From: an uncultured Pseudomonadota bacterium
Lineage (GTDB): Bacteria > Babelota > Babeliae > Babelales > UBA12411
Direction: 5' to 3'
DNA: 64,000 nt
NCBI GenBank assembly: GCA_964491895.1
Contig: CAZBHK010000001.1
Coordinates: forward strand, 9,870 to 73,869
The translations under genes and the position numbers were made by a program. The notes under the pieces were generated by a model. It ran no database searches and was not told the DNA's origin. It was given only the letters and a program-made list of their open reading frames with translations. Numbering within the stretch: the stretch's first letter is position 1; the number at the start of each line of letters is the position of its first letter. Below, piece by piece: positions 42,527 through 54,732 of this stretch.

Positions 42527-43258
42527 ATGAAAATAAAAATCATAGCATCAATGTTATGTTCATTAATATTTTTAACTAATGTTATATCATGGCCCATGGC
42601 GCCTATTGCCTCAATAAAATCAGCTGATGCTTTGGATCATTGGTTATTAGAGGCAGCACAAAACGTAGGTTATTTATCACACCAGTTACCTGAAACATTT
42701 TTAAAAGATGTGCCGGGATTTTCTATAGAAGAATTTAATGCATTTTTTAAAGAGGTTGTTGCTGGTCGCAAGATGAAGAATGAATTTATGACTAGTGAAA
42801 CATTTTTTCAAGCATTGCTTGATAGTTCTATGCAACTTTCTCGCATCGATATGGCAATAAGAATAGGTAGCGGGGAAGTTAGTACATATAGACCATTGTT
42901 AACAGTTAGGGCGAAAGGTTATGCAAATCATTTTTATCAAATGGCAGCGGTTATTTTATTAAATATGGCTCCATATGTTAGTCCTAAAATAAGAGATACT
43001 GTGGAATTAATTGCATTACAAAAAATGAAAGAGCAACCTTCATGGCAAGGGCTTAAGGATATGCTTGAACTGTTAGATAGAATTTTTATAGAGTCTAAAA
43101 TATTTCAAAAGAACATGATTCAAGAATTAGAGTCGAGAGAACGTACTATTATACAATCAGGAGCTTCTAGAAATAATGCACTAATTGCTGGAGGAGTTGC
43201 TGCTTGCACTGCTATTGCAGCATGTTTAATTGCATTAAAATATATTAGAAGAATATAA
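42527..43258 (+). CDS. hypothetical protein with N-terminal signal and C-terminal TM anchor
   Basis: 243 aa with an N-terminal hydrophobic segment and C-terminal ALIAGGVAACTAIAACLIAL. No motif recognised. Confidence 0.5.
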   Translation: MKIKIIASMLCSLIFLTNVISWPMAPIASIKSADALDHWLLEAAQNVGYLSHQLPETFLKDVPGFSIEEFNAFFKEVVAGRKMKNEFMTSETFFQALLDSSMQLSRIDMAIRIGSGEVSTYRPLLTVRAKGYANHFYQMAAVILLNMAPYVSPKIRDTVELIALQKMKEQPSWQGLKDMLELLDRIFIESKIFQKNMIQELESRERTIIQSGASRNNALIAGGVAACTAIAACLIALKYIRRI

Positions 43259-43259
43259 A

Positions 43260-44636
43260 TTATTGAGGAGAGGCCACTAAGGCTTCTCCTACTTCATTAA
43301 TTTTACCAGCGCCTATAGTTATAAATAGATCACCTTCTTGTAGTGATTTTTTTAATTCTTCTGTGATTTCATTAAATGTTGCGCAATAATAAATTATCTT
43401 ATTTGGATTTTTTTCTTTAATAGCCTTAATTAAATTTTCACTTGTTATACCAGGGATTGGAATCTCACTTGCTGGATAAATATCTGCTAAGTAGATAATA
43501 TCAGGTGAAGCCGTTGCTAATAAAGATACAAACTCATCCCATAATTTTTGTGTACGTGTGAATCTATGAGGTTGGAAAGCGGCAATAAGTCTTTTTTTAG
43601 CTCTTTTTTTTGCTACTAATAGTGTATTTTCTAATTCTACAGGATGATGCCCATAGTCATCGAAAATGTCTGCACCATTAAAATTTCCTTTAAATTCAAA
43701 TCTACGTTCTACACCTTTGAATGTAAATAAGGCTTTTTGGATATCCTCAAAAGGAACAGAAAGCTCTAGACACACAGCTATTGCTGCTAATGAATTTAGG
43801 ATATTATGTTTACCAGGGATGTTCAAAGTTATTTCACCAATTAGATTTTTAGAATAAACGTTAAAGATTGAATATGTTGATTCTAAAGAAATAATTTCAC
43901 CACGAATATCTGTATCTGAGCTAAGTCCATATTTAATAATAGGGATGTGTGTAATAGGCATTATTGATTGGATCCCAGGATCATCAATACAAACAAAGCC
44001 TTTGCCATAAAATGGAAGCCTTGCTAAGAAATCTCTAAATGTTTGTTTGATATCGTCTATGTCTTTATAGGTATCTAGGTGATCGGCATCAATGTTGGTT
44101 ACTACTGCTAAGCTAGGGTTGAGATATAAAAGTGAGCGGTCACTTTCATCAGCTTCTGCAATAATTAAATTTCCATTACCAAATTTTGCATTATTACTAA
44201 AATTTTTAAGAATTCCACCTACAATAACAGAAGGGTCTTTACCTGATTCTATAAGGATATGTGAAATAATTGAAGTAGTTGTTGTTTTGCCATGAGTCCC
44301 TGAGATTGCAACACTGTGCTTAGTTCTCATTATTTCAGCTAACATAATCGCTCTAGGGATTACAGGAATTCCTTTGTTTAAGGCACAAGCTACTTCAGGA
44401 TTTTCTTTATTTAATGCTGAGGAATATATGAGAACATCTACATCATGAATATGATCTTTATTGTGGCCTTGGTATACATTGCAGCCTATTTCTTTTAGAT
44501 GATCTATTGTTTTAGAATGTGTACATAGATCACATCCCGATACAATATAACCTTGGTGTTTTAGTATTTCTGCGATACCGCTCATTCCTATTCCACCGAT
44601 ACCGATGAAGTGTAGATGTTTTTTCTTGTTGTACAT
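43260..44636 (-). CDS. murC: UDP-N-acetylmuramate--L-alanine ligase
   Basis: HFIGIGGIGMSGIAEIL, AISGTHGKTTTTS and DDYGHHP are MurC blocks. 458 aa. Confidence 0.94.
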   Translation of the reverse strand: MYNKKKHLHFIGIGGIGMSGIAEILKHQGYIVSGCDLCTHSKTIDHLKEIGCNVYQGHNKDHIHDVDVLIYSSALNKENPEVACALNKGIPVIPRAIMLAEIMRTKHSVAISGTHGKTTTTSIISHILIESGKDPSVIVGGILKNFSNNAKFGNGNLIIAEADESDRSLLYLNPSLAVVTNIDADHLDTYKDIDDIKQTFRDFLARLPFYGKGFVCIDDPGIQSIMPITHIPIIKYGLSSDTDIRGEIISLESTYSIFNVYSKNLIGEITLNIPGKHNILNSLAAIAVCLELSVPFEDIQKALFTFKGVERRFEFKGNFNGADIFDDYGHHPVELENTLLVAKKRAKKRLIAAFQPHRFTRTQKLWDEFVSLLATASPDIIYLADIYPASEIPIPGITSENLIKAIKEKNPNKIIYYCATFNEITEELKKSLQEGDLFITIGAGKINEVGEALVASPQ

Positions 44637-45796
44637 TATTTAGTTTCCCAGTATTTGACTAAGCGAGAAAGTGCTTCTTGTAAAATATCTCTATTTCTTG
44701 CAAAACATAGTCGTATATAATTTTTTGAGCTTGGACCAAATGTTCCTCCAGGAACGGTTGATACACCAGCTTCTTTAATAATATCTAAACAGAGCTTAGT
44801 TGTATCTTCTTCTTTCGTTTGTACGAAAGTATAGAATCCTGCAATTGGATTTTGGAAGTCGATAATACCAGCTTTTTTTAGCGGAGTTAACATTTTGACG
44901 GTAAGATCTCTGTTTTTTTTCACATACTGATGAAATTGATCTGTAAGATGTGGATTATTTAATGCAGCTAATGCAGCATACTGCCCGATTACAGAAGAAC
45001 ATATAAATATAGAGTCTTGCATTACATAAGCCATAGGAGCTAGTGACTCTGGTACAACCATGTATCCAATTCTCCAGCCACTTAAACCAAAGTTTTTTGA
45101 GAATGATGAGACTTTTATTACATGTTGAGAAGCCTTAGTAAATGGTGTTACTGAGAAGAACTCTCCTTCAAATATATAATCTGAATAAACTTCATCTACA
45201 ATTAAATAAATACCTTTTTCTTCACACCATGATATTAAATCCAAGATATCATTTTTTGCAGAGAGGGTGCTTGTTGGGTTGGATGGGTTAGAAAAAATAA
45301 TCATCTTTGTTTTATTTGTAGTTGCTGCTTTAATTTCTTCTATGGGAAGATTCCATGAGATTTTATCATTTTCTTTTTTTAATGATGAGACATATATAGG
45401 TTTAGCTCTAGCGATTCTTGCTAAGTTTATGTATGACGGATATGCAGGTTCTGGAAGGATAACTTCATCTTTATCTGTTAATAATAAAAGCATTAGAGCT
45501 GTTAAGGCTCCATTGCATCCATGAGTAATAATAATTTGTTTGGTTGTAATGTTTACATTGTGTTTAGCTGTCAATGTTTCGGCTAACTTTTCTCTAAGTT
45601 CTAATAATCCTGAGCCATGACCATAGTAATCGGCTTTGTTACTTGTAACAATTTTTTTTACATAATCTTTGATTTCTTTTATTGGAGCATCAACTTTTAG
45701 ACCACCTTGAGATAAAGAAATAATATTCGGATTATTACGAGCGAATTCTTCCATTTGTTTTATTGCGGAAAGTTTTATATCTATCATATTTTTCAA
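44636..45796 (-). CDS. class I/II pyridoxal-phosphate aminotransferase
   Basis: 386 aa. NPSNPT and SSFSKNFGLSGWRIGY (PLP-Lys) are present. Substrate cannot be determined by eye. Confidence 0.8.
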   Translation of the reverse strand: MKNMIDIKLSAIKQMEEFARNNPNIISLSQGGLKVDAPIKEIKDYVKKIVTSNKADYYGHGSGLLELREKLAETLTAKHNVNITTKQIIITHGCNGALTALMLLLLTDKDEVILPEPAYPSYINLARIARAKPIYVSSLKKENDKISWNLPIEEIKAATTNKTKMIIFSNPSNPTSTLSAKNDILDLISWCEEKGIYLIVDEVYSDYIFEGEFFSVTPFTKASQHVIKVSSFSKNFGLSGWRIGYMVVPESLAPMAYVMQDSIFICSSVIGQYAALAALNNPHLTDQFHQYVKKNRDLTVKMLTPLKKAGIIDFQNPIAGFYTFVQTKEEDTTKLCLDIIKEAGVSTVPGGTFGPSSKNYIRLCFARNRDILQEALSRLVKYWETK

Positions 45797-45809
45797 TCGG
45801 TTAACAATG

Positions 45810-46400
45810 TTAACGAAAAGTTGGAGTGTTTAAAATTATTACAATTTCCTTATACGTAAGGAGTAAGGTTGTAAAAAAAGATATTAATATTAATACACGA
45901 CATGTTAAGTTTAGAATAATATTTTTTTTATATGTATTACTACAAAAAAATGAATTAAAGAATGTAGCAATTCCACATACTACTATAACTATCCAAAGTG
46001 GCCAAGGTGTTTGCAAAATAAGATAGAGGAGATGTGTTACACTTGTTTTTATATAAGGTGTGCCAGATATTGCAAGCGTGAACATATTTATGGTTAATGC
46101 TATTAACCATGTGAATAGCTCAGGATATTTAATTTTTTTATTAAATAAAAATTTAAAAGTTTTTGTTATAAGGACTTTGCCTCTAGATATAGGCATACAT
46201 AATACAAAAAATGACCATGTTAATAATGAAAGATGTATTGCTACTAATGGATTGTAATTATTAAAAATTGGTTTGATTAATAAAATAAATAGTATTAGAA
46301 ATATAGAGAATTTTATTAATGGAAATTGTTCTGGATCTGTATATATTTGTTCTAGTTTTTTTTCTATATCATTACTCATAAATGTCCCCTTATTTTTCAA
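45810..46400 (-). CDS. hypothetical polytopic membrane protein
   Basis: 196 aa with 5-6 hydrophobic segments. No motif recognised. Confidence 0.5.
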   Translation of the reverse strand: MKNKGTFMSNDIEKKLEQIYTDPEQFPLIKFSIFLILFILLIKPIFNNYNPLVAIHLSLLTWSFFVLCMPISRGKVLITKTFKFLFNKKIKYPELFTWLIALTINMFTLAISGTPYIKTSVTHLLYLILQTPWPLWIVIVVCGIATFFNSFFCSNTYKKNIILNLTCRVLILISFFTTLLLTYKEIVIILNTPTFR

Positions 46401-46410
46401 AAAGAACTTT

Positions 46411-46486
46411 TGGTGGAGCTAACCGGGGTCGAACCGGTGACCTTTCGAATGCCATCCGAACGCTCTACCAGCTGAGCTATAGCCCC
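46411..46486 (-). tRNA. tRNA-Ala (anticodon GGC)
   Basis: The reverse complement folds as GGGGCTA-TA-GCTC-AGCTGGTA-GAGC-G-TTCGG-ATGGCAT-TCGAA-AGGTC-ACCGG-TTCGACC-CCGGT-TAGCTCC-A-CCA. The G3:U70 Ala identity pair is present. Confidence 0.92.
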
Positions 46487-46499
46487 ACAGCTATATAAG

Positions 46500-46700
46500 T
46501 CTAGGTGAATTAAGTAAAAAAAACAACTTCGTGAACTACCGACCACCAAGTTTACGCTCTGGTGGCGGCTTCCTGCTTCGCTCCATGGATAACTAGACTA
46601 CTACTAAGAATAGTCCCCGCCATAGCATGGTCCACAGGCTTATATTCGGACCGTCCCGGCCCTATTTGCAATAACGCAACTTTCTTTATATTGATTGCCG
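46500..46700 (-). ncRNA. putative omega (right-end) guide RNA scaffold of TnpB
   Basis: The 3' end of tnpB plus downstream sequence is conspicuously GC-rich with several local stems on the minus strand: GGTCC..GGACC, GGCGG..CCGCC, GACTA..TAGTC, CCACCA..TGGTGG. It ends in a T8 run (forward A8 at 46516-23). Assigned by analogy to characterised TnpB systems. Confidence 0.4.
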
Positions 46701-47763
46701 CATTTATATCCCTATCTATAATAGCACCACAATACTCACATTCGTAAGTACGTGTTGATAAAGATAGTTTTTCCTTGATCTTGCCACATTGGGAACAAGT
46801 CTTAGAGGATGGAAACCAGCGATCAATCATTATCACATTCTTACCTGACCATTGTGATTTATACTGTAGTGTTTTTGTAAAAAAATGCCATCCACAATCA
46901 CCAATAGATTTAGCAAGTTTGTGATTTTTCATCATTCCTTGCACATTTAGATCTTCTATTGCAAAACTAGTATCGTGGTTCTTGTATACTAATTTTGCTG
47001 AGATCTGATGTGCTCTATCTTGACGTTGACTTGTTAGTTTTTCATATATTTTTGCTACCTTTTTTCTAGCTTTAGCTCTGTTAGCTGAACCTTTAATCTT
47101 CTTGAAAAATTTTCTTTGTGCAGATTTCAATCGCTTTTGATTCTTATAAAGATATTTATGGTTTGGTTCTTTATCACCTGAGCTAGTTATTACAAAATCT
47201 TTTATGCCAAGGTCTATACCTAGTGTTTTATCTCCTTCTATAGGAGAAGATACAGGCGTTAACACATTTGTATCTACTAATACACTAATAAAATACTTAT
47301 CTGTCGGAGTTTTACTTACTGTACAAGTTTTAATCTCACCAGAGAATTTTCTATGTAATTCAATTTTAATACGTTTGATTTTAGGAAGGTTAACAAAATT
47401 CTTATCAAGATCTACTTTTACATGCTGTGGGCATTGATATGACTGTCTTCCATTATATTTACTCTTGAATCTTGGAAGCTGAGTCTGTCCTTTGAAGAAG
47501 TTTTTATACGCTGTATCAAAATTGATCAATGAAGCTAGAAGTGACTGACTATTTACCTCTCTCAACCAGCTTATTTTCTTTTTAAGAGTAACTAACTCAT
47601 TTTGAAGGTCTATCCTAGATAAAGTTAAGCCAGTTTCTTTATAATGTAATTGTCTTCTAGTAAGAGCCCAGTTGTATACCCACCTAACACAACCAAAATG
47701 TTCAGCAAAATTTTGTCTCTGAATTGCATTAGGATATATTCTATACTTATATGCCTTAAGCAT
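46552..47763 (-). CDS. tnpB: TnpB (IS200/IS605-family OrfB, RuvC-like RNA-guided endonuclease)
   Basis: 403 aa. MLKAYKYRIYPN...FGCVRWVYNWAL N-terminus; RuvC D (LGIDLGIKDF), E (FAIEDLNVQGM), a Zn ribbon (CSQCG...CEYCG) and D (DRDINAAINI) are all intact. Confidence 0.92.
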   Translation of the reverse strand: MLKAYKYRIYPNAIQRQNFAEHFGCVRWVYNWALTRRQLHYKETGLTLSRIDLQNELVTLKKKISWLREVNSQSLLASLINFDTAYKNFFKGQTQLPRFKSKYNGRQSYQCPQHVKVDLDKNFVNLPKIKRIKIELHRKFSGEIKTCTVSKTPTDKYFISVLVDTNVLTPVSSPIEGDKTLGIDLGIKDFVITSSGDKEPNHKYLYKNQKRLKSAQRKFFKKIKGSANRAKARKKVAKIYEKLTSQRQDRAHQISAKLVYKNHDTSFAIEDLNVQGMMKNHKLAKSIGDCGWHFFTKTLQYKSQWSGKNVIMIDRWFPSSKTCSQCGKIKEKLSLSTRTYECEYCGAIIDRDINAAINIKKVALLQIGPGRSEYKPVDHAMAGTILSSSLVIHGAKQEAATRA

Positions 47764-47957
47764 ATCTTACTCTCCCTTTGAAAACCTATTACCATAATAC
47801 CAGAAGAACAATCTTTATAAAAATATTTTTAGACATCCGGTTTATCCGCTATCCATCGCCACCCAAATCTAAGAGATTTTGTATGGCGAATTCCGCGGAA
47901 ATTTGTTAAAACTAAAAAACATTTATTTAAAAATTATATTTTGAGTATTCTATATCT

Positions 47958-49340
47958 ATGAAGCAAATAAAAGAAATTTTAGATAAAAAAATTATTCTTA
48001 TTCTTAAAGAGATTATTACAAAAGGGATACCTTACCTTGTTGGAGGATGTGTTCGGGATTTAATTTTAGATCTACCTATCAAGGACTTAGATATAGAGGT
48101 GCATGGTCTTACTATAGAAGAATTAGAAATAATCTTGAAAAAGTTTGGATATGTACGTCTTGTTGGAAAACAGTTTGGTGTTTTGCGGATCGATTCATAT
48201 GATATTGATTGGTCTATTCCTAGACGAGATAGTAAGGGTAGAAAGCCCAAGGTAGAATTTGATCCAGGGATGGGAATTAAGGAAGCTGCTAGGAGAAGAG
48301 ATTTGACCTTAAATGCTATAGCAATAAACTTGAAAACATTTTTAACAACTGGTGACCAAGAGTTTATTGATCCTTATGGTGGTATAGAAGATATTAAGCA
48401 TGAAAGATTAAAAGCAGTAGATTCGGTTCTTTTTTATGATGATCCACTACGTTTCTATCGTGTTATACAGTTTATTTCACGCTTTGAGATGGAACCTGAT
48501 GAAGAATTAACAGTGATCTGTAAAAAGATCAATGTAGTGGATGTTGCAAGAGAGCGGATTTATGATGAGTTTAAAAAGTTGCTTTTAAGGTCTAGAAAAC
48601 CATCCTTAGGATTACGTTATTTGAAAAAGATTTCTAGATTAAAAGAATTGTTTCCAGAGCTTGGTGCTTTGGTCGGTATAAAACAGTCAGAAAAATATCA
48701 TCCAGAAGGTGATGCATTTGAGCATACTATGCAGTCTTTAGATGCCTCTGCAGTTTTAGAGTTGTATGAAGATGAATCTGAAAAACTTTTGGTGATGTTT
48801 GCTGTATTATGTCATGATCTTGGTAAAGCAAAAGTTAATACACAGGATGGTAGAGCGATAGGTCATGAAAAGGAAGGAGTTTCTTTAGCAGGTAAATTTT
48901 TAAAACGATTTGGAGTGACTGGTTTTTTAAGTAATGCTATTAGTAAGATGGTTTATTACCATATGATGCCATTTGCATTATTGGAGCAGAAGTCAGGTTT
49001 AAGCGCGTATAAGCGTTTAGCTAGTAAACTTTCGCCGGAAGTTACACCAAAAGAGTTAGGGTTAGTTGCATTGTGTGATCATAGAGGTAGAAATAAAAAT
49101 TCATTTGAGTCTTTACAAAATTATAAAAATGAATTTGATTATTATATGCAAAAAGTTAAAGATGCAGATGTTGAGTATGGGCCACAAAAGCCTGTATTAT
49201 TAGGAAGACATTTATTGGATATTCTAGATCCTGGTGAAAAAATGGGTGAGTTATTAAAAAAAGCTTATGAGATTCAGATAGAAGAAGGTATTTTAGATTG
49301 GGAAGAGTTGAAGCGTAGGGTTATTGCAAAGAAAGCTTAG
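47958..49340 (+). CDS. cca: CCA-adding tRNA nucleotidyltransferase with HD domain
   Basis: LVGGCVRDLILDLPIKDLDIEVHG and RRRDLTLNAIA form the pol-beta head. YHPEGDAFEHT...LCHDLGK is the HD domain. Confidence 0.85.
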   Translation: MKQIKEILDKKIILILKEIITKGIPYLVGGCVRDLILDLPIKDLDIEVHGLTIEELEIILKKFGYVRLVGKQFGVLRIDSYDIDWSIPRRDSKGRKPKVEFDPGMGIKEAARRRDLTLNAIAINLKTFLTTGDQEFIDPYGGIEDIKHERLKAVDSVLFYDDPLRFYRVIQFISRFEMEPDEELTVICKKINVVDVARERIYDEFKKLLLRSRKPSLGLRYLKKISRLKELFPELGALVGIKQSEKYHPEGDAFEHTMQSLDASAVLELYEDESEKLLVMFAVLCHDLGKAKVNTQDGRAIGHEKEGVSLAGKFLKRFGVTGFLSNAISKMVYYHMMPFALLEQKSGLSAYKRLASKLSPEVTPKELGLVALCDHRGRNKNSFESLQNYKNEFDYYMQKVKDADVEYGPQKPVLLGRHLLDILDPGEKMGELLKKAYEIQIEEGILDWEELKRRVIAKKA

Positions 49341-49349
49341 AGGATTATT

Positions 49350-50078
49350 ATGTTTGGATTTTTGTTTCAGTCATCGTCTTGGGAACTTGTAAGGCAGTCA
49401 GATTTTTTTACAAAGTTAATAATTTTTTCATTATTTATATGTTCTATAATATGTGTAGCAATTATAATTTTAAAATTTTCTTATTTTAGAAAAGAGCTTC
49501 ATCAGATGAAATCTCTTCTTGCTCGTATTAGAGGTGTTAAGTCAATAGAAAGCTTTTATGCGTTAAATGAAGAATTTTCTTCTAACCTTGGTGGTCTTTT
49601 TTTAACTGAGGGTTTGTCTGAAGTTAAGTCATTATTGAAAACAGAAAATTATTTAACTGAAAGTGATATAAATAGATTAGATGTTGCTTTGAATCAAACA
49701 ACAGATAATGCAATGCTTGAAGCTGAAAGTTATTTACCAGTATTAGGTGTAAGTGCAGCAGTATCTCCACTTATTGGTTTGTTTGGTACTATTTGGGGTT
49801 TAATTCATGCTTTTGTAAGTATAGGTCAGGAAAAATCTGCGGATTTAGCGGTTGTTGCACCCGGTATAGCTGAAGCATTAATTACAACATTAGCTGGTTT
49901 AATTGTTGCTATACCTGCTATGATATTTTTTCATTATTTTTCCAATCAACTTAGAAAGATGGAGCAGATGATGGGCTATTTGATGGAAAGATTTTTTTCT
50001 ACTGTTATACAACATTTTTCTAAGGCTAACTTGGAAAATTTGCTTGTTTCTAATAGAGAACAAGAAAAGAGAATGTAA
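49350..50078 (+). CDS. tolQ: MotA/TolQ/ExbB-family proton channel (TolQ)
   Basis: 242 aa with 3 TM segments. PLIGLFGTIWGLIHAF and APGIAEALITTLAGLIVAIPA are TolQ/ExbB blocks. It heads a tolQRAB-like cluster. Confidence 0.85.
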   Translation: MFGFLFQSSSWELVRQSDFFTKLIIFSLFICSIICVAIIILKFSYFRKELHQMKSLLARIRGVKSIESFYALNEEFSSNLGGLFLTEGLSEVKSLLKTENYLTESDINRLDVALNQTTDNAMLEAESYLPVLGVSAAVSPLIGLFGTIWGLIHAFVSIGQEKSADLAVVAPGIAEALITTLAGLIVAIPAMIFFHYFSNQLRKMEQMMGYLMERFFSTVIQHFSKANLENLLVSNREQEKRM

Positions 50079-50485
50079 TGAAAAGAATGAGACGAAGAGT
50101 TAAGCGTTTTGCTATGCCTGAGATAGTATTGACTCCACTTATAGATACAGCTTTAACATTGTTAGTCATTTTTATGGTTGCAGCTCCTATATTACAGCGA
50201 GGAATTAAGGTTGATTTACCTAAGGGTGATACTAAAGAAGCTCAAGGAAAACAAGATTTGATTGTTACAATAACTAAGGACAATAAATTATTTTTTAACA
50301 GTTCTCCAGTAGCTAAAAAAGATTTATTATCTACTGTTAAGCGAGAGTTAGGGGTACGGGATGATTTACCAGTATATGTTAGGGCGGATGAATCTATATC
50401 ATATGGAAAAGTAATAGAGATAGTAGATGAACTTAAACGATCGGGTGTTAAATACATTGCAATGTCGACACGGGCAATTAACTAA
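50078..50485 (+). CDS. tolR: ExbD/TolR-family protein
   Basis: 135 aa. PEIVLTPLIDTALTLLVIFMV TM and ...VYVRADESISYGKVIEIVDELKRSG match the ExbD/TolR consensus. Confidence 0.85.
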   Translation: MKRMRRRVKRFAMPEIVLTPLIDTALTLLVIFMVAAPILQRGIKVDLPKGDTKEAQGKQDLIVTITKDNKLFFNSSPVAKKDLLSTVKRELGVRDDLPVYVRADESISYGKVIEIVDELKRSGVKYIAMSTRAIN

Positions 50486-51134
50486 ACATTATTTTTTATA
50501 TTCATTTCTTTTTCATATTCTTTTAGTGTTAATTATTACTAAGATATCCTTGTTTGAAGGTATGCAAAAAAGCTTTATTGTCTTAGGTGCGCATTCTTCT
50601 AAGGAAACTGTTGCATATTTTAGGCCACTTAAGACGCCAAAGCAGATAGGCTCACCGACTTCTAGGATGAAGTCCGTTATTAAGGAACGGCATAGTAAAA
50701 AAAAGAAGACTGCTTTTAAAAAAACGTTAAAGAAAAAGAAGCCTATTATTAAAGAGAAGCTAGAAGAGAAAAAGATAGAAAAAAAGAAAGAGCTAGTAGA
50801 AGAGCCTGTTAAACAGGAACAACCAAAAGAAAAAACAGTCTCTGAGCCAATGTCTGTTGTATTGGGTGATGTTGCTGGGATAACATTGACTCGTTTCTAC
50901 AAGGATGTTCAAAGAGAGGTTGCAAGAGTTTGGCGACCACCAGTTGGGGTGCCTAGGGGAACAGAGTGTGTGTTGTCTTTAGAGATTGATGATAAGGGTG
51001 ACGTGAAAAAATTTGAACTTAGTGAGCGCTCAAAAGTTCTCATATATGATTTAAGTGTGTTACAGGCTGCTCGTGAATTTAAATTTGAAAAATCGCTATG
51101 GAATAGCAGTTTATTTATAACCTTTCGACAATAA
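50427..51134 (+). CDS. tolA: TolA/TonB-like energy-transducer protein
   Basis: N-terminal TM (FLYSFLFHILLVLIIT), a Lys/Glu-rich linker, and a TonB_C-like end (VARVWRPPVGVPRG...). The start is uncertain: ATG 50427, GTG 50445 and TTG 50457 all overlap tolR. Confidence 0.65.
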   Translation: MNLNDRVLNTLQCRHGQLTKHYFLYSFLFHILLVLIITKISLFEGMQKSFIVLGAHSSKETVAYFRPLKTPKQIGSPTSRMKSVIKERHSKKKKTAFKKTLKKKKPIIKEKLEEKKIEKKKELVEEPVKQEQPKEKTVSEPMSVVLGDVAGITLTRFYKDVQREVARVWRPPVGVPRGTECVLSLEIDDKGDVKKFELSERSKVLIYDLSVLQAAREFKFEKSLWNSSLFITFRQ

Positions 51135-51146
51135 TTAAGGTGAGTA

Positions 51147-52472
51147 ATGAATAAAATTATAATTATCTTAATGTTGATATCAAATCTTTTTGGCTATGAT
51201 AGTATTTTTATAAAACCAGAACCTATTGAGAGAAAAGAAGAAAAATTAATATTTGAAGCACGTGCTAATGAAGCTACTAATGGTAAGATCAAATGTCTTG
51301 TAACATGTTTTGGAGAAGAACAGCTTTCTAGTGCAATAGCTAAAGTTTTCCGTAATGATTTAGAGTTTACAGATCAATTAGAAATAGATTTGCGCAAGAC
51401 ACAAAAACAGATTACTAGTGATATTATATCTAAGTTATTTACTCAGGGCGTTTCAATATATTGTTCCTTAGAAATAAAAAATGGTTCGGTACTGGTAAGT
51501 GTTTATGATACCTCTTCTTGTCAGGAAATTTTCAAGAAAAAGTTTAATTTAGATACAAATAATCCAGTGGTTTGTGGAAATAAGTTATCTCATGAGGTTC
51601 TTCCAAAACTTACAGGGGATACCCCAGTATCTCTTTATGATCTAGCATATTGTGAATTATTAAATCCAAGACATAAGGTTATTCGTGTTGCTAATTATGA
51701 TGCTAAATTTTCATATGTTGCTGTGCCAATGAAAACAGTTAACATCATTCCATGTTGGCATGGTAGTAAGTCTATTTTATTTTATAGTCAATTAACTGGC
51801 AAGAATACGCGCCTTATGGCTATAGATTTACAGACAAATAGACACAAAGTTATATGCTCATTAGAAGGTTTAAATATGCAACCATCTGTATCTAAGGATG
51901 GGAAAAAGGTTGTTTTATGTCTTTCTTGTTCTGGCAACTCTGAGCTTTATTTTTATGATGCTGATGCTTGTGAAAAAAGAAAACAAAGATTTTTCAAGAA
52001 GATAACTAATAATGGTGGTAATAACGTAGCACCATTATTATTAGAGAACGGGGATATAATTTTTTGTTCAGATTATAAAACAGGTATTCCTCAAATTTTC
52101 TATCTTAATAGGAATACTAATACTATTAAGCAGCTTACACATGGTAGCTATTGTGCAGCACCATCTTATTGTGAAATTACTCGATCTGTTGTATTTACGC
52201 GGCCGGTGAATGGAGTATTTCAGTTGTTTAGATTACATTTAAATGATGATCTTAGTTCAAGTACCGAGGAGCAACTTACCTTTAATGCTGGTGATAAGCA
52301 TGATCCTTCTTATTCTACATGTGGCAAGTATGTTATTTTTTCTTATAGAGTGCCCTTAAATACTGGGCATATGACTACACAAATATCTGCCTTAAATACT
52401 GCAAGTGGTAAAATTAGAGTATTAACTGCTGGTAGAGAGCCAAAAAGTTCACCTGTATGGCGAAAAAAGTAA
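51147..52472 (+). CDS. tolB: TolB-like periplasmic beta-propeller protein
   Basis: 441 aa with a signal peptide. Repeated PD40-like units (PSVSKDGKKVVL..., APLLLENGDIIFCSD, PSYSTCGKYVIFS) and position after tolQRA support the call. Confidence 0.75.
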   Translation: MNKIIIILMLISNLFGYDSIFIKPEPIERKEEKLIFEARANEATNGKIKCLVTCFGEEQLSSAIAKVFRNDLEFTDQLEIDLRKTQKQITSDIISKLFTQGVSIYCSLEIKNGSVLVSVYDTSSCQEIFKKKFNLDTNNPVVCGNKLSHEVLPKLTGDTPVSLYDLAYCELLNPRHKVIRVANYDAKFSYVAVPMKTVNIIPCWHGSKSILFYSQLTGKNTRLMAIDLQTNRHKVICSLEGLNMQPSVSKDGKKVVLCLSCSGNSELYFYDADACEKRKQRFFKKITNNGGNNVAPLLLENGDIIFCSDYKTGIPQIFYLNRNTNTIKQLTHGSYCAAPSYCEITRSVVFTRPVNGVFQLFRLHLNDDLSSSTEEQLTFNAGDKHDPSYSTCGKYVIFSYRVPLNTGHMTTQISALNTASGKIRVLTAGREPKSSPVWRKK

Positions 52473-52537
52473 ATTTTTTATCTAGATTATTTATATACAT
52501 AGACGATCGAGCTTGGTTTTCTGTTGATAACTATAAT

Positions 52538-52734
52538 TCCTGGAATGATATGCTAGGATAAATTCTATACATATATGTTTTAAGGATTGCACTCCCCTAG
52601 AAAACCTATTATTATATTATCAAAGGAACAAGTTTTACAAAAGTATTTTTTTCGATCTTGGGTCTGTTCGCTATTAATTTCCCCTCAAATTAGTAGGTTT
52701 TGGATGGCAAATTTCACGAAAGTTTGTTATACTT
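52538..52734 (-). mobile_element. degenerate solo left end plus first ~12-15 codons of a second copy of the tnpB IS
   Basis: Collinear by eye with 47715-47913. For example, aattctatacatatatgttttaagg vs tattctatacttatatgccttaagc; cccctagaaaacctattattatatt vs ccctttgaaaacctattaccataat; ggatggcaaatttcacgaaagtttgttatact vs gtatggcgaattccgcggaaatttgttaaaact. Confidence 0.75.
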
Positions 52735-52800
52735 CATAGATTAGACTTATTTATATTAATAGGATCTAGGGGGAGCTTATTTATTTTTTGAGGATGTATT

Positions 52801-54732
52801 ATGAAAAGATTTCCAAATAGAAAAACTAGATTTAATCCTAAGGGACCTAATGCATTATTATTGTTAATAGTGATGCTTGGTCTATCTATTGCGTATTTAT
52901 TTTGGTACAACAGTATTAATGTTGAACGTGAGACCATTGCATTTTCTAGTTTTCTTTCACAAGTAGAAGCTGGAAATGTTAAAGAGGTTCAAATCTCAGA
53001 ACAAAATGTATTGGGCGAGTTTAAGAAAAGTGTGCCTGCGCAAATTGGGGAAGGTCAGGTTAAAAATGTTTCAGCATTTTCAACAACTATATTTTCACCT
53101 GATACATTGTGGCAAAAATTGCATGAGCATGGAGTTCTTATTAAGGTAGAGCCTCAAGATAAACAACCTTGGATACCATATGTATTTTTATTCTTAATAT
53201 TTCCAATGTTGATGGCTGGTTTATATTTTTTTCTTCGTCAAGGTGGTCAGGGTGGCGCTGGCGGTAAGATTTTTAATGTTGGTAAGAGTAGAGCTAAGTT
53301 TTTTTCACCCAATACTATTAAAATTAAGTTTAAGGATGTTGCTGGTGTAGAAGAAGCTAAAGAAGATTTACATGACGTTGTAGATTTTTTGAAAAGTTCT
53401 GAAAAATTTAAAAGGATTGGAGCTAAGATTCCTAGAGGTATTTTGCTTACAGGTGCTCCAGGTAATGGAAAAACCATGCTTGCTAAGGCTGTAGCCGGTG
53501 AAGCTAATTGTCCATTTTTTAGTGTTAGTGGTTCAGATTTTGTTGAAGTTTTTGTTGGAGTTGGTGCATCTAGAGTACGTGATCTTTTTATTCAAGCACG
53601 TAAACATGCTCCTTGCATAGTATTTATTGATGAGATTGATGCTGTTGGTCGTCACAGAGGTGTTGGTATTGGTGGCGGTAATGATGAACGAGAACAAACA
53701 TTGAATCAGCTTCTTTCTGAGATGGATGGTTTTTCAACAGAGCCAGGAGAAGTAATTATTTTAGCGGCTACTAATAGACAGGACGTTTTGGATAAGGCAT
53801 TGTTGCGTCCAGGACGATTTGATCGTAAGGTCGATGTTCCATATCCAGATCTTTCAAGCAGAGAGAAGATTTTGAATATTCATATCAAGGATGTTAAGGT
53901 TACTGATGATGTTGATCTTCATAAGGTTGCTAGAGGAACTGCAAGTTTTAGTGGTGCTGATTTGGCTAATCTTATTAATGAAGCCGCTCTTATTGCTTCT
54001 AAGGCTAAAAAAGATCGTGTAGACATGAGAGACTTTGAGTTGGCCAGAGATAAGATATTAGTGGGCGCTGAAAGAAAAACGCTTACAAGACCTAAAGAGG
54101 CAATAGAAATGACAGCTTATCATGAAGCAGGTCATACATTAGTGCTTGTGTTATCTCCAAATAGTTTACCTTTACATAAAGTTACAATTTTATCTAGAGG
54201 TGGAGCATTGGGAATGACCTGGTATCTTCCTGAAAATGATGAAGTTTCTAAGAGTGAAGAAGAGCTTATTTCAGAAATAATGGTATGTATGGGCGGTAGA
54301 GTTGCTGAAGAGATTGTATATGGTGTAGAAAAGCGTACAACCGGTGCTATTAGTGATTTAAAACGAGCAACAAAGTTAGCTTATGACATGGTTGCACATT
54401 ATGGAATGTGCGATGCTCTTGGACCTATATCTTTACCTTCTAGCGAGGGACAAAAAGAGTATTCTCAGGATACGGAAAAAAAGATAGATGAACAGGTTAG
54501 AGCTATAATAACTAAATGCTACGAAGATACAAAAAAGCTTATTTTTGAGAATAGAGAGCGTTTAGATATTCTTGCTAAGACTTTGGTAGAGCAAGAGACC
54601 TTAGATTCTGCATTGGTATATAAGCTTCTTCATATAGAGCCTAGAAAGACAATTGAAAATTTTCAAAGCAAGGAAGAAGTTCCAACCTCTTCTGAGATTC
54701 CAGTGATTACTTCTCAAGAGCTTAAAAAGTAA
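52801..54732 (+). CDS. ftsH: ATP-dependent zinc metalloprotease FtsH
   Basis: 643 aa. [31 protein letters not shown], the SRH region and the HEAGH zinc motif. Confidence 0.96.

Follow-up and report, generated by a model that had tools for sequence, protein, structure and literature searches.

The window analysed here is a 64,000-nt stretch of contig CAZBHK010000001.1 (assembly GCA_964491895.1), in which a tnpB gene stands close upstream of a tRNA-Ala(GGC) gene. The locus raises the question of whether this gene, together with the GC-rich DNA at its 3' end, still constitutes a mobile element with its own guide RNA, and what relation such an element has to the tRNA. The host belongs to the Dependentiae (TM6)/Babeliales, as the source names of the neighbouring proteins read Candidatus Babeliales or Dependentiae; the Dependentiae are a host-associated phylum with reduced genomes. 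Judged from its sequence, the element is a TnpB-encoding insertion sequence (IS) of the IS200/IS605 family (IS605 group). The DNA between 47904 and 46531 (minus strand) is very probably an intact non-autonomous IS that contains only TnpB and its omega-RNA, is retained by predicted RNA-guided homing and has the tRNA as a bystander.

The tnpB gene (46552..47763, minus strand) is intact and encodes a predicted RNA-guided nuclease of 403 aa with the full TnpB layout. Three Pfam domains were found, all well over their cutoffs, namely HTH_OrfB_IS605 (PF12323, 2e-19), OrfB_IS605 (PF01385, 1.4e-22) and the zinc-ribbon domain Cas12f1-like_TNB (PF07282, 2.4e-22). The NCBIfam model guided_TnpB gave 331 bits (cutoff 100), and the narrower IS200_TnpB model gave 395 bits, under its cutoff of 425. 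The best relatives with solved structures were an AI-designed TnpB-like nuclease and the ISDra2 TnpB of Deinococcus radiodurans (E = 1.3e-64). In the alignment with the latter, the RuvC triad D184/E270/D352 matched D191/E278/D361, and the zinc ribbon (CxxC...CxxC) C323/C326/C342/C345 matched the four zinc cysteines of ISDra2. The unbroken D-E-D triad and the zinc ribbon described in the initial annotation, made from the sequence alone, were thus both found. The dN/dS ratio of the TnpB core among close copies was 0.12–0.23. A type V CRISPR-Cas12f system was also considered and ruled out: the NCBIfam Cas12f2 and C2c8 models scored 55 and 85 bits, under their cutoffs of 450 and 350, and no spaced repeat array (CRISPR) was found within 43000–53000. 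The nearest relatives of the window TnpB from reference genomes were only 51% identical. No match to the exact proteins (window TnpB, P0001, P0125) was found in the public index, where a nine-sequence cluster 97% identical to the window TnpB was present.

Members of this cluster were the source of the comparison loci and yielded four of them (L081–L084). L081, from a groundwater metagenome, is the same locus as that of the window, with the IS between the CCA-adding-enzyme (CCA) gene and tRNA-Ala. L082 and L083 carry a second copy, flanked by an ankyrin-repeat gene on one side and a convergent nrdB on the other, and L084 represents a third insertion context. The element is therefore multicopy, with a DNA identity of 93–99% between copies across three unrelated contexts. 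In the alignment of the copies the shared DNA opens at TTTAAC joined to AAATTTCCGCGG and closes at ...GGTGGTCGGTAGTTCAC, and the flanks are unrelated on both sides. These near-identical copies set the element proper at 47904–46531 (minus strand; 1,374 bp). The span 46500–47915 proposed initially does hold the element, but both of its ends lie too far out: 46500–46530 is host flank (the guide and the tRNA promoter region), 47905–47910 is TTTAAC and 47911–47915 is flank. The motif TTTAAC (47905..47910, minus strand) is a probable host-side target motif that abuts the left end (LE) at the start of the sequence shared among the copies.

The right end (RE) terminates in ...GGTAGTTCAC at 46531. Its final bases, TTCAC (46531..46535, minus strand), are transposon-encoded, and the homology of the copies stops directly after them; in more than 100 relatives TTCAY closes the conserved region and the flanks diverge beyond it. 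The LE (47764..47904, minus strand) is conserved among the copies, with 141 bp from the left boundary to the start of tnpB. It contains an imperfect subterminal hairpin (47899–47845; DNA fold −13.4 kcal/mol, z = −2.8), which is also present in a 79%-identical relative (L085, z = −5.6) and in the element of a sister species (L194, z = −3.8). In addition, it holds a promoter-like TTTATA-16-TATTAT (47821–47794), detected by a promoter scan, and a GGGAGAG ribosome-binding site ahead of tnpB. The RE has its own imperfect subterminal hairpin (46569–46538), which is also the terminal stem P4 of the omega-RNA. Neither terminal inverted repeats nor a target-site duplication were found at the element ends, judged across the three contexts.

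The 3' end of tnpB had attracted attention because of its base composition (GC 0.49 in 46550–46699 versus about 0.30–0.33 elsewhere in the gene and in its neighbours), and it had been proposed to be an omega-RNA scaffold. A scan of the region against Rfam 15 at E ≤ 1 returned the tRNA alone, without any omega-RNA family, and a single-sequence nhmmer search with the 3' region as the query reached near-identical copies only. The relatives used for a structure-based search, drawn from reference genomes, metagenomes and viral contigs, comprised 190 loci with 31–79% protein identity. A common RNA plan, located 3' of a conserved D-x-N-A-A-x-N-I motif, recurs in more than 100 of them. It consists of a 6-bp hairpin (P1) whose loop reads G[GA]A, a helix in which GCYNNUGGA pairs with GAAGNNRGAAGCC, and two further hairpins, the central one variable and the other terminal, followed by GG(U/C)AGUUCA(C/U), after which the sequences diverge. 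The signature of the omega-RNA of this clade can be given as the P1 hairpin with its G[GA]A loop, P2, GAAGCC, the terminal hairpin and GGUAGUUCAC.

An automatic alignment of mixed relatives with MAFFT and RNAalifold gave 9 pairs only, with the cyanobacterial sequences misaligned, and was replaced by a curated seed. The resulting covariance model, R1, was built on 14 distant relatives, none of them window-like, and comprises 24 base pairs. In this seed 92.5% of cells pair, compared with 38–51% when the partners are slid, and compensatory changes occur in 23 of the 24 pairs. Applied to the window, R1 gave a single significant match in 64 kb, at 46665–46531 on the minus strand (59.4 bits, E = 6.8e-10), which covers model positions 1–99 of 99 and ends on the same base, 46531, as the RE derived from the comparison of paralogues. 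A weak match at 53453–53536 on the plus strand (E = 4.2) falls within ftsH and was set aside. When 47 distinct sequences were aligned to R1, 92.9% of cells paired and all 24 pairs covaried; as this alignment was made to fit R1, the statistics of the seed provide the cleaner test. As the match was obtained with a model of distant relatives, the GC-rich stretch can be regarded as a genuine omega-RNA scaffold. It is 135 nt long (46531..46665, minus strand), overlaps tnpB codons 367–403 and extends 21 nt past the stop codon. Its helices are P1 (46662–46648), P2 (46638–46634 with 46576–46572), the central variable hairpin and P4 (46569–46538), all on the minus strand.

The same stretch could be read as mere coding sequence for a C-terminal extension of TnpB, since the open reading frame (ORF) spans the region (codons 365–403) and, folded as a single sequence, the 3' region is unexceptional (z = −1.45). 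However, the protein homology to relatives ends at about residue 360–370. Over the last 39 codons (365–403) the window copy shows 0 differences from L084 versus 7% in the core, while in the comparison with L082 dN exceeds dS (0.083 and 0.037) with the base pairs retained. Selection over these codons thus acts on the RNA and not on the protein, in agreement with the point at which the protein homology ends. Together with the structure-based match and the compensatory changes, which point to RNA, this leaves the coding-only explanation strongly disfavoured and next to negligible in probability.

Directly 3' of the RE lies the predicted guide segment GAAGTTGTTTTTTTTACTTA (46511..46530, minus strand; first 16 nt 46530–46515), which comes from the host flank and is unique in the window. 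Its length of 16–20 nt was taken from ISDra2 (PMC8612924). With the RE fixed at 46531 by three independent insertion contexts, the guide would, by analogy with ISDra2, be derived from the upstream flank of tRNA-Ala, as had been supposed initially. Concerning the target-adjacent motif (TAM), TTTAAC stands ahead of the LE in all three contexts, in the relatives L085 and L091 and in the sister-species L194. In IS-free relatives, whose CCA enzyme is 58–59% identical, tRNA-Ala(GGC) is divergent from the CCA gene at a distance of 107 or 75 nt (93 nt in the reconstructed empty site of the window), and TTAAC or ATAAC is found 0–7 nt upstream of the −35 box of the tRNA. Multicopy cyanobacterial relatives (L005/L007, L020/L021 and L036/L047), which end in GGTAGTTCAC, share TTAGC at the left junction. 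Both observations fit TTAAC as the host target (TAM) and not as transposon sequence. The likely TAM core is TTAAC (47909–47905), and the comparison suggests TTA[A/G]C as the putative target and TAM of the whole TnpB clade. The terminal TTCAC differs from TTAAC by one base, so the occupied site would be kept from being a target, as in a published model (bioRxiv 10.1101/2023.03.14.532601).

For transcription, RNA processing, TAM use, cleavage activity and homing, a mechanism can be borrowed by analogy from ISDra2 (PMC8612924) and from the Geobacillus elements (bioRxiv 10.1101/2023.03.14.532601). The promoter in the LE would give the tnpB mRNA, the 3' part of which (46665–46531) would fold as the omega-RNA scaffold, and the next ~16–20 nt (46530–46511), a copy of the host flank, would serve as the guide. 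TnpB with its omega-RNA would cut alleles lacking the element, in which TTTAAC is joined straight to GAAGTTGTTTTTTTTA; the predicted empty-site junction is ...AGTTTTAAC joined straight to GAAGTTGTTTTTTTT... Repair from the IS-bearing copy would then restore the element (homing, or retention), and moves to new TTAAC sites would require a Y1 TnpA in trans.

The absence of tnpA from the window, noted already in the initial annotation, was confirmed by tblastn, in which three Y1-transposase queries gave a best E of 1.0. In many related loci they do detect tnpA next to tnpB, with E values down to 5e-40; of the relatives, L096 and L125 have an intact gene and L194 a frameshifted one. The window copy is consequently non-autonomous, as tnpB elements most commonly are (bioRxiv 10.1101/2023.03.14.532601), and its occurrence in three or more contexts with 93–99% identity implies mobilisation in trans. 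A second complete copy was not found in the window, only a left-end relic at 52554–52729 (minus strand), which consists of a decayed solo left end and the first ~12 tnpB codons. It is 73% identical to 47908–47730 (blastn, E = 1.7e-22), has ATC in place of the ATG start codon, follows TATAAC and is without a right end. The relic is placed in the spacer between a TolB-like gene and ftsH and belongs to repeat family D1; by its homology, it is the remnant of a second, older insertion of the same family.

Several points weigh against the reading as an intact non-autonomous IS retained by homing. An empty site of the same species was not recovered, since every other contig that has the identical CCA gene is broken off within the IS; the ends were fixed by other copies, and the exact LE/TAM boundary rests on cross-species comparison. 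The guide segment is T-rich and of low complexity, and no TnpA donor was identified for the host genome. To the unexceptional fold mentioned above are added a few non-standard pairs that cmsearch flags in the inner P4 of the window copy. Finally, some TnpBs that are intact proved inactive in assays, as was the case with HpyTnpB (bioRxiv 10.1101/2023.03.14.532601).

In part the same points would suit an immobile relic that looks intact, is inactive in both transposition and cleavage and persists because deletion is slow. Such a relic would be consistent with the missing tnpA in the window, the frameshifted tnpA of the sister species, the decayed left end 5 kb away, the bulge and mismatches in P4 and the example of HpyTnpB. 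It is nevertheless unlikely, as it does not agree with at least three insertion contexts at 93–99% identity, with the dN/dS of 0.12–0.23, with an omega-RNA tail free of changes against 7% in the core (window and L084) or with the retention of all catalytic and zinc residues.

As to the tRNA, tRNA-Ala(GGC) (46411..46486, minus strand; Rfam tRNA, 62 bits) is a host gene outside the element. It follows the tnpB stop codon on the same strand after exactly 65 nt, close to the roughly 65 nt estimated at first, and the RE after 44 nt. The possibility that it is cargo or a part of the element was ruled out, because other copies have no downstream tRNA and IS-free relatives retain the tRNA at this place. 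The element sits in the divergent spacer between the CCA gene and tRNA-Ala and ends 4 nt before the probable −35 box of the latter. A promoter-like motif is present at 46498..46526 (minus strand), with the −35 box TTGTTT at 46526–46521, a 17-nt spacer and the −10 box TAGACT at 46503–46498; the −35 box and half of the spacer fall within the guide segment. The aligned motif reads TTGAAT, 17 nt, TAGTCT in the sister species (L205, 219–247), TTGCTA, 16 nt, TAAAAC in the IS-free relative L197 and TTGTAT, 16 nt, TAAACT in the IS-free relative L202. The consensus upstream of tRNA-Ala over four Dependentiae lineages is TTGnnn, 16–17 nt, TA[A/G]nnn. The motif scores under the threshold of the generic promoter scan, and its conservation makes 46498–46526 the likely promoter of tRNA-Ala.

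The initial annotation had also asked whether transcription of the element reads into the tRNA. A scan for intrinsic terminators found no terminator-like site between the RE and the tRNA, so read-through is possible; the promoter-like motif has been kept and is also found in IS-free relatives, so tRNA-Ala is probably independent of IS transcription.

The position of the guide over a promoter element brings in a further explanation, in which the host has co-opted the element: TnpB with its omega-RNA would bind the junction of the RE and the flank and, like TldR, the TnpB-like nuclease-dead repressors, tune the transcription of tRNA-Ala and of the genes downstream, or else IS read-through would feed the tRNA. 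The overlap of the guide with a conserved promoter-like motif, the TTCAC before the target with its single difference from TTAAC, the lack of a terminator-like site and a related element in the same spacer of a sister species are in line with this. Very low probability can be assigned to it, however, given that the RuvC triad is intact, unlike that of TldR-type exapted TnpBs, that the same element occurs with other guides in unrelated contexts, that the junctions lie 4 and 43 nt from the −35 box in the two species and that the tRNA retains its own promoter-like motif, as do the IS-free relatives. An exapted nuclease-dead TnpB proper was ruled out on account of the intact triad and of a multicopy element with ordinary transposon ends, and the overlap of guide and promoter is explained by where the element inserted.

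The related element was found in sister Babeliales genomes (GCA_023128415.1 and GCA_030640465.1), in the same CCA/tRNA-Ala spacer and in the same orientation (L194, 492–1045; L205, 1–176; L206, 1–60). The CCA enzyme of the sister species is 65% and its aminotransferase 71% identical to those of the window. On the CCA side the sequence runs from TTTAAC joined to AAGACACCGCGG... through a tnpA pseudogene, which is multiply frameshifted and divergent from tnpB, into tnpB, a layout like that of IS605. The N-terminal 163 aa of the sister tnpB product are 59.5% identical to the window protein. On the tRNA side an omega-RNA scaffold closes in GGTAGTTCAC, 89 nt ahead of tRNA-Ala. All sister contigs break inside the element, which implies that it is multicopy there too. 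The junctions are offset by 43 nt from the −35 box in the sister species versus 4 nt in the window, and by 33 versus 43 nt from the CCA start. To account for these offsets we lean slightly towards two insertions into a favoured spacer over one old insertion with later indels.

There is a small chance that the element or its lineage has held the CCA/tRNA-Ala spacer since before the two Babeliales species diverged, with tnpA lost and tnpB and the omega-RNA kept by selection; the flanking housekeeping proteins of the two species are 65–71% identical. If true, this would be a case of an element retaining itself at one locus by RNA guidance over a very long time or, alternatively, of an incipient host function at the promoter of tRNA-Ala and the murC operon, with the −35 box under the guide.

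The window element, read as a non-autonomous IS, can be compared with several known systems. With the TnpB and omega-RNA (right-end element RNA, reRNA) of ISDra2 (PDB 8EXA, 8BF8 and 8H1J) it shares the domain order, the RuvC D-E-D triad and the zinc ribbon, as well as a scaffold lying across the 3' end of tnpB and the RE, a predicted guide from the flank and a putative 5-nt target/TAM located 5' of the LE (PMC8612924). ISDra2, however, is autonomous, with tnpA and the motif TTGAT, whereas the window element is without tnpA and has the junction motif TTAAC, and the two omega-RNAs could not be aligned by a simple nucleotide search. The ISGst families of Geobacillus stearothermophilus (the "IS1341-type" layout) are similar in having a lone tnpB between LE and RE hairpins, multiple copies, TnpA in trans and a covariation-supported omega-RNA, and homing to the donor joint was proposed for them (bioRxiv 10.1101/2023.03.14.532601). 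The window element differs in its host phylum (Dependentiae/Babeliales) and in its TnpB/omega-RNA clade, and its cognate TnpA was not identified. The resemblance to IS605 of Helicobacter pylori lies in the relatives, as the sister-species L194 has tnpA divergent from tnpB beside the LE and in the family relative L096 the divergent tnpA is intact; the window copy, in contrast, has lost tnpA entirely, with only the 141 bp ahead of tnpB. TldR is similar in having a guide over a promoter element, here the tRNA-Ala −35 box, but the window TnpB retains its catalytic triad, the element is mobile, occurs in several copies and has ordinary ends, and whatever flanks the RE serves as its guide.

Some further features of the copies and of the locus were observed. 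The window and L081 differ at 17 sites only, all within the tract 46855–47134 inside tnpB. In this tract the window is identical to the nrdB-locus paralogue L082, whereas outside it 67 sites join the window with L081; the tract looks like a 280–440-bp gene conversion between copies or a chimeric assembly. The insertion of the second copy in L082 (5229–5234), and likewise in L083, is at the extreme end of the convergent nrdB, and nrdB receives its TGA stop codon from the right end (GTTCAC, taken on the opposite strand), so that NrdB ends in ...E* compared with a reconstructed ...ELKA*. The gene order around the element in the window is murC, aminotransferase, membrane protein, tRNA-Ala, IS, CCA enzyme, tolQ/exbD, TonB-like, TolB-like and ftsH. 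The genes of the membrane protein, aminotransferase and murC trail tRNA-Ala on the same strand, the first within ~30 nt, so the tRNA-Ala promoter may drive an operon. The top sigma-70-like match of the region, TTCATA-18-TATAAT (10/12; 47933–47962, minus strand), lies outside the element, overlaps the start of the CCA gene and is directed into the LE; it could supply additional read-in transcription of tnpB.

A full-text literature search found no paper treating TnpB in Dependentiae. The locus adds from this phylum a well-delimited TnpB/omega-RNA pair with its ends, a candidate TAM (TTAAC) and a scaffold supported by covariation, and the candidate nuclease, at 403 aa with a ~135-nt scaffold, is a compact one to test. 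The locus further provides a natural example of a predicted guide lying over a probable tRNA promoter, and recombination of the kind presupposed by the homing model appears to have left traces in the copies. Elements of this kind are very common, and the current understanding of TnpB biology is unchanged by this one; the interest is confined to a set of nuclease, omega-RNA and candidate TAM from Dependentiae, to the placement at a tRNA promoter and to a possible long residence at the locus.

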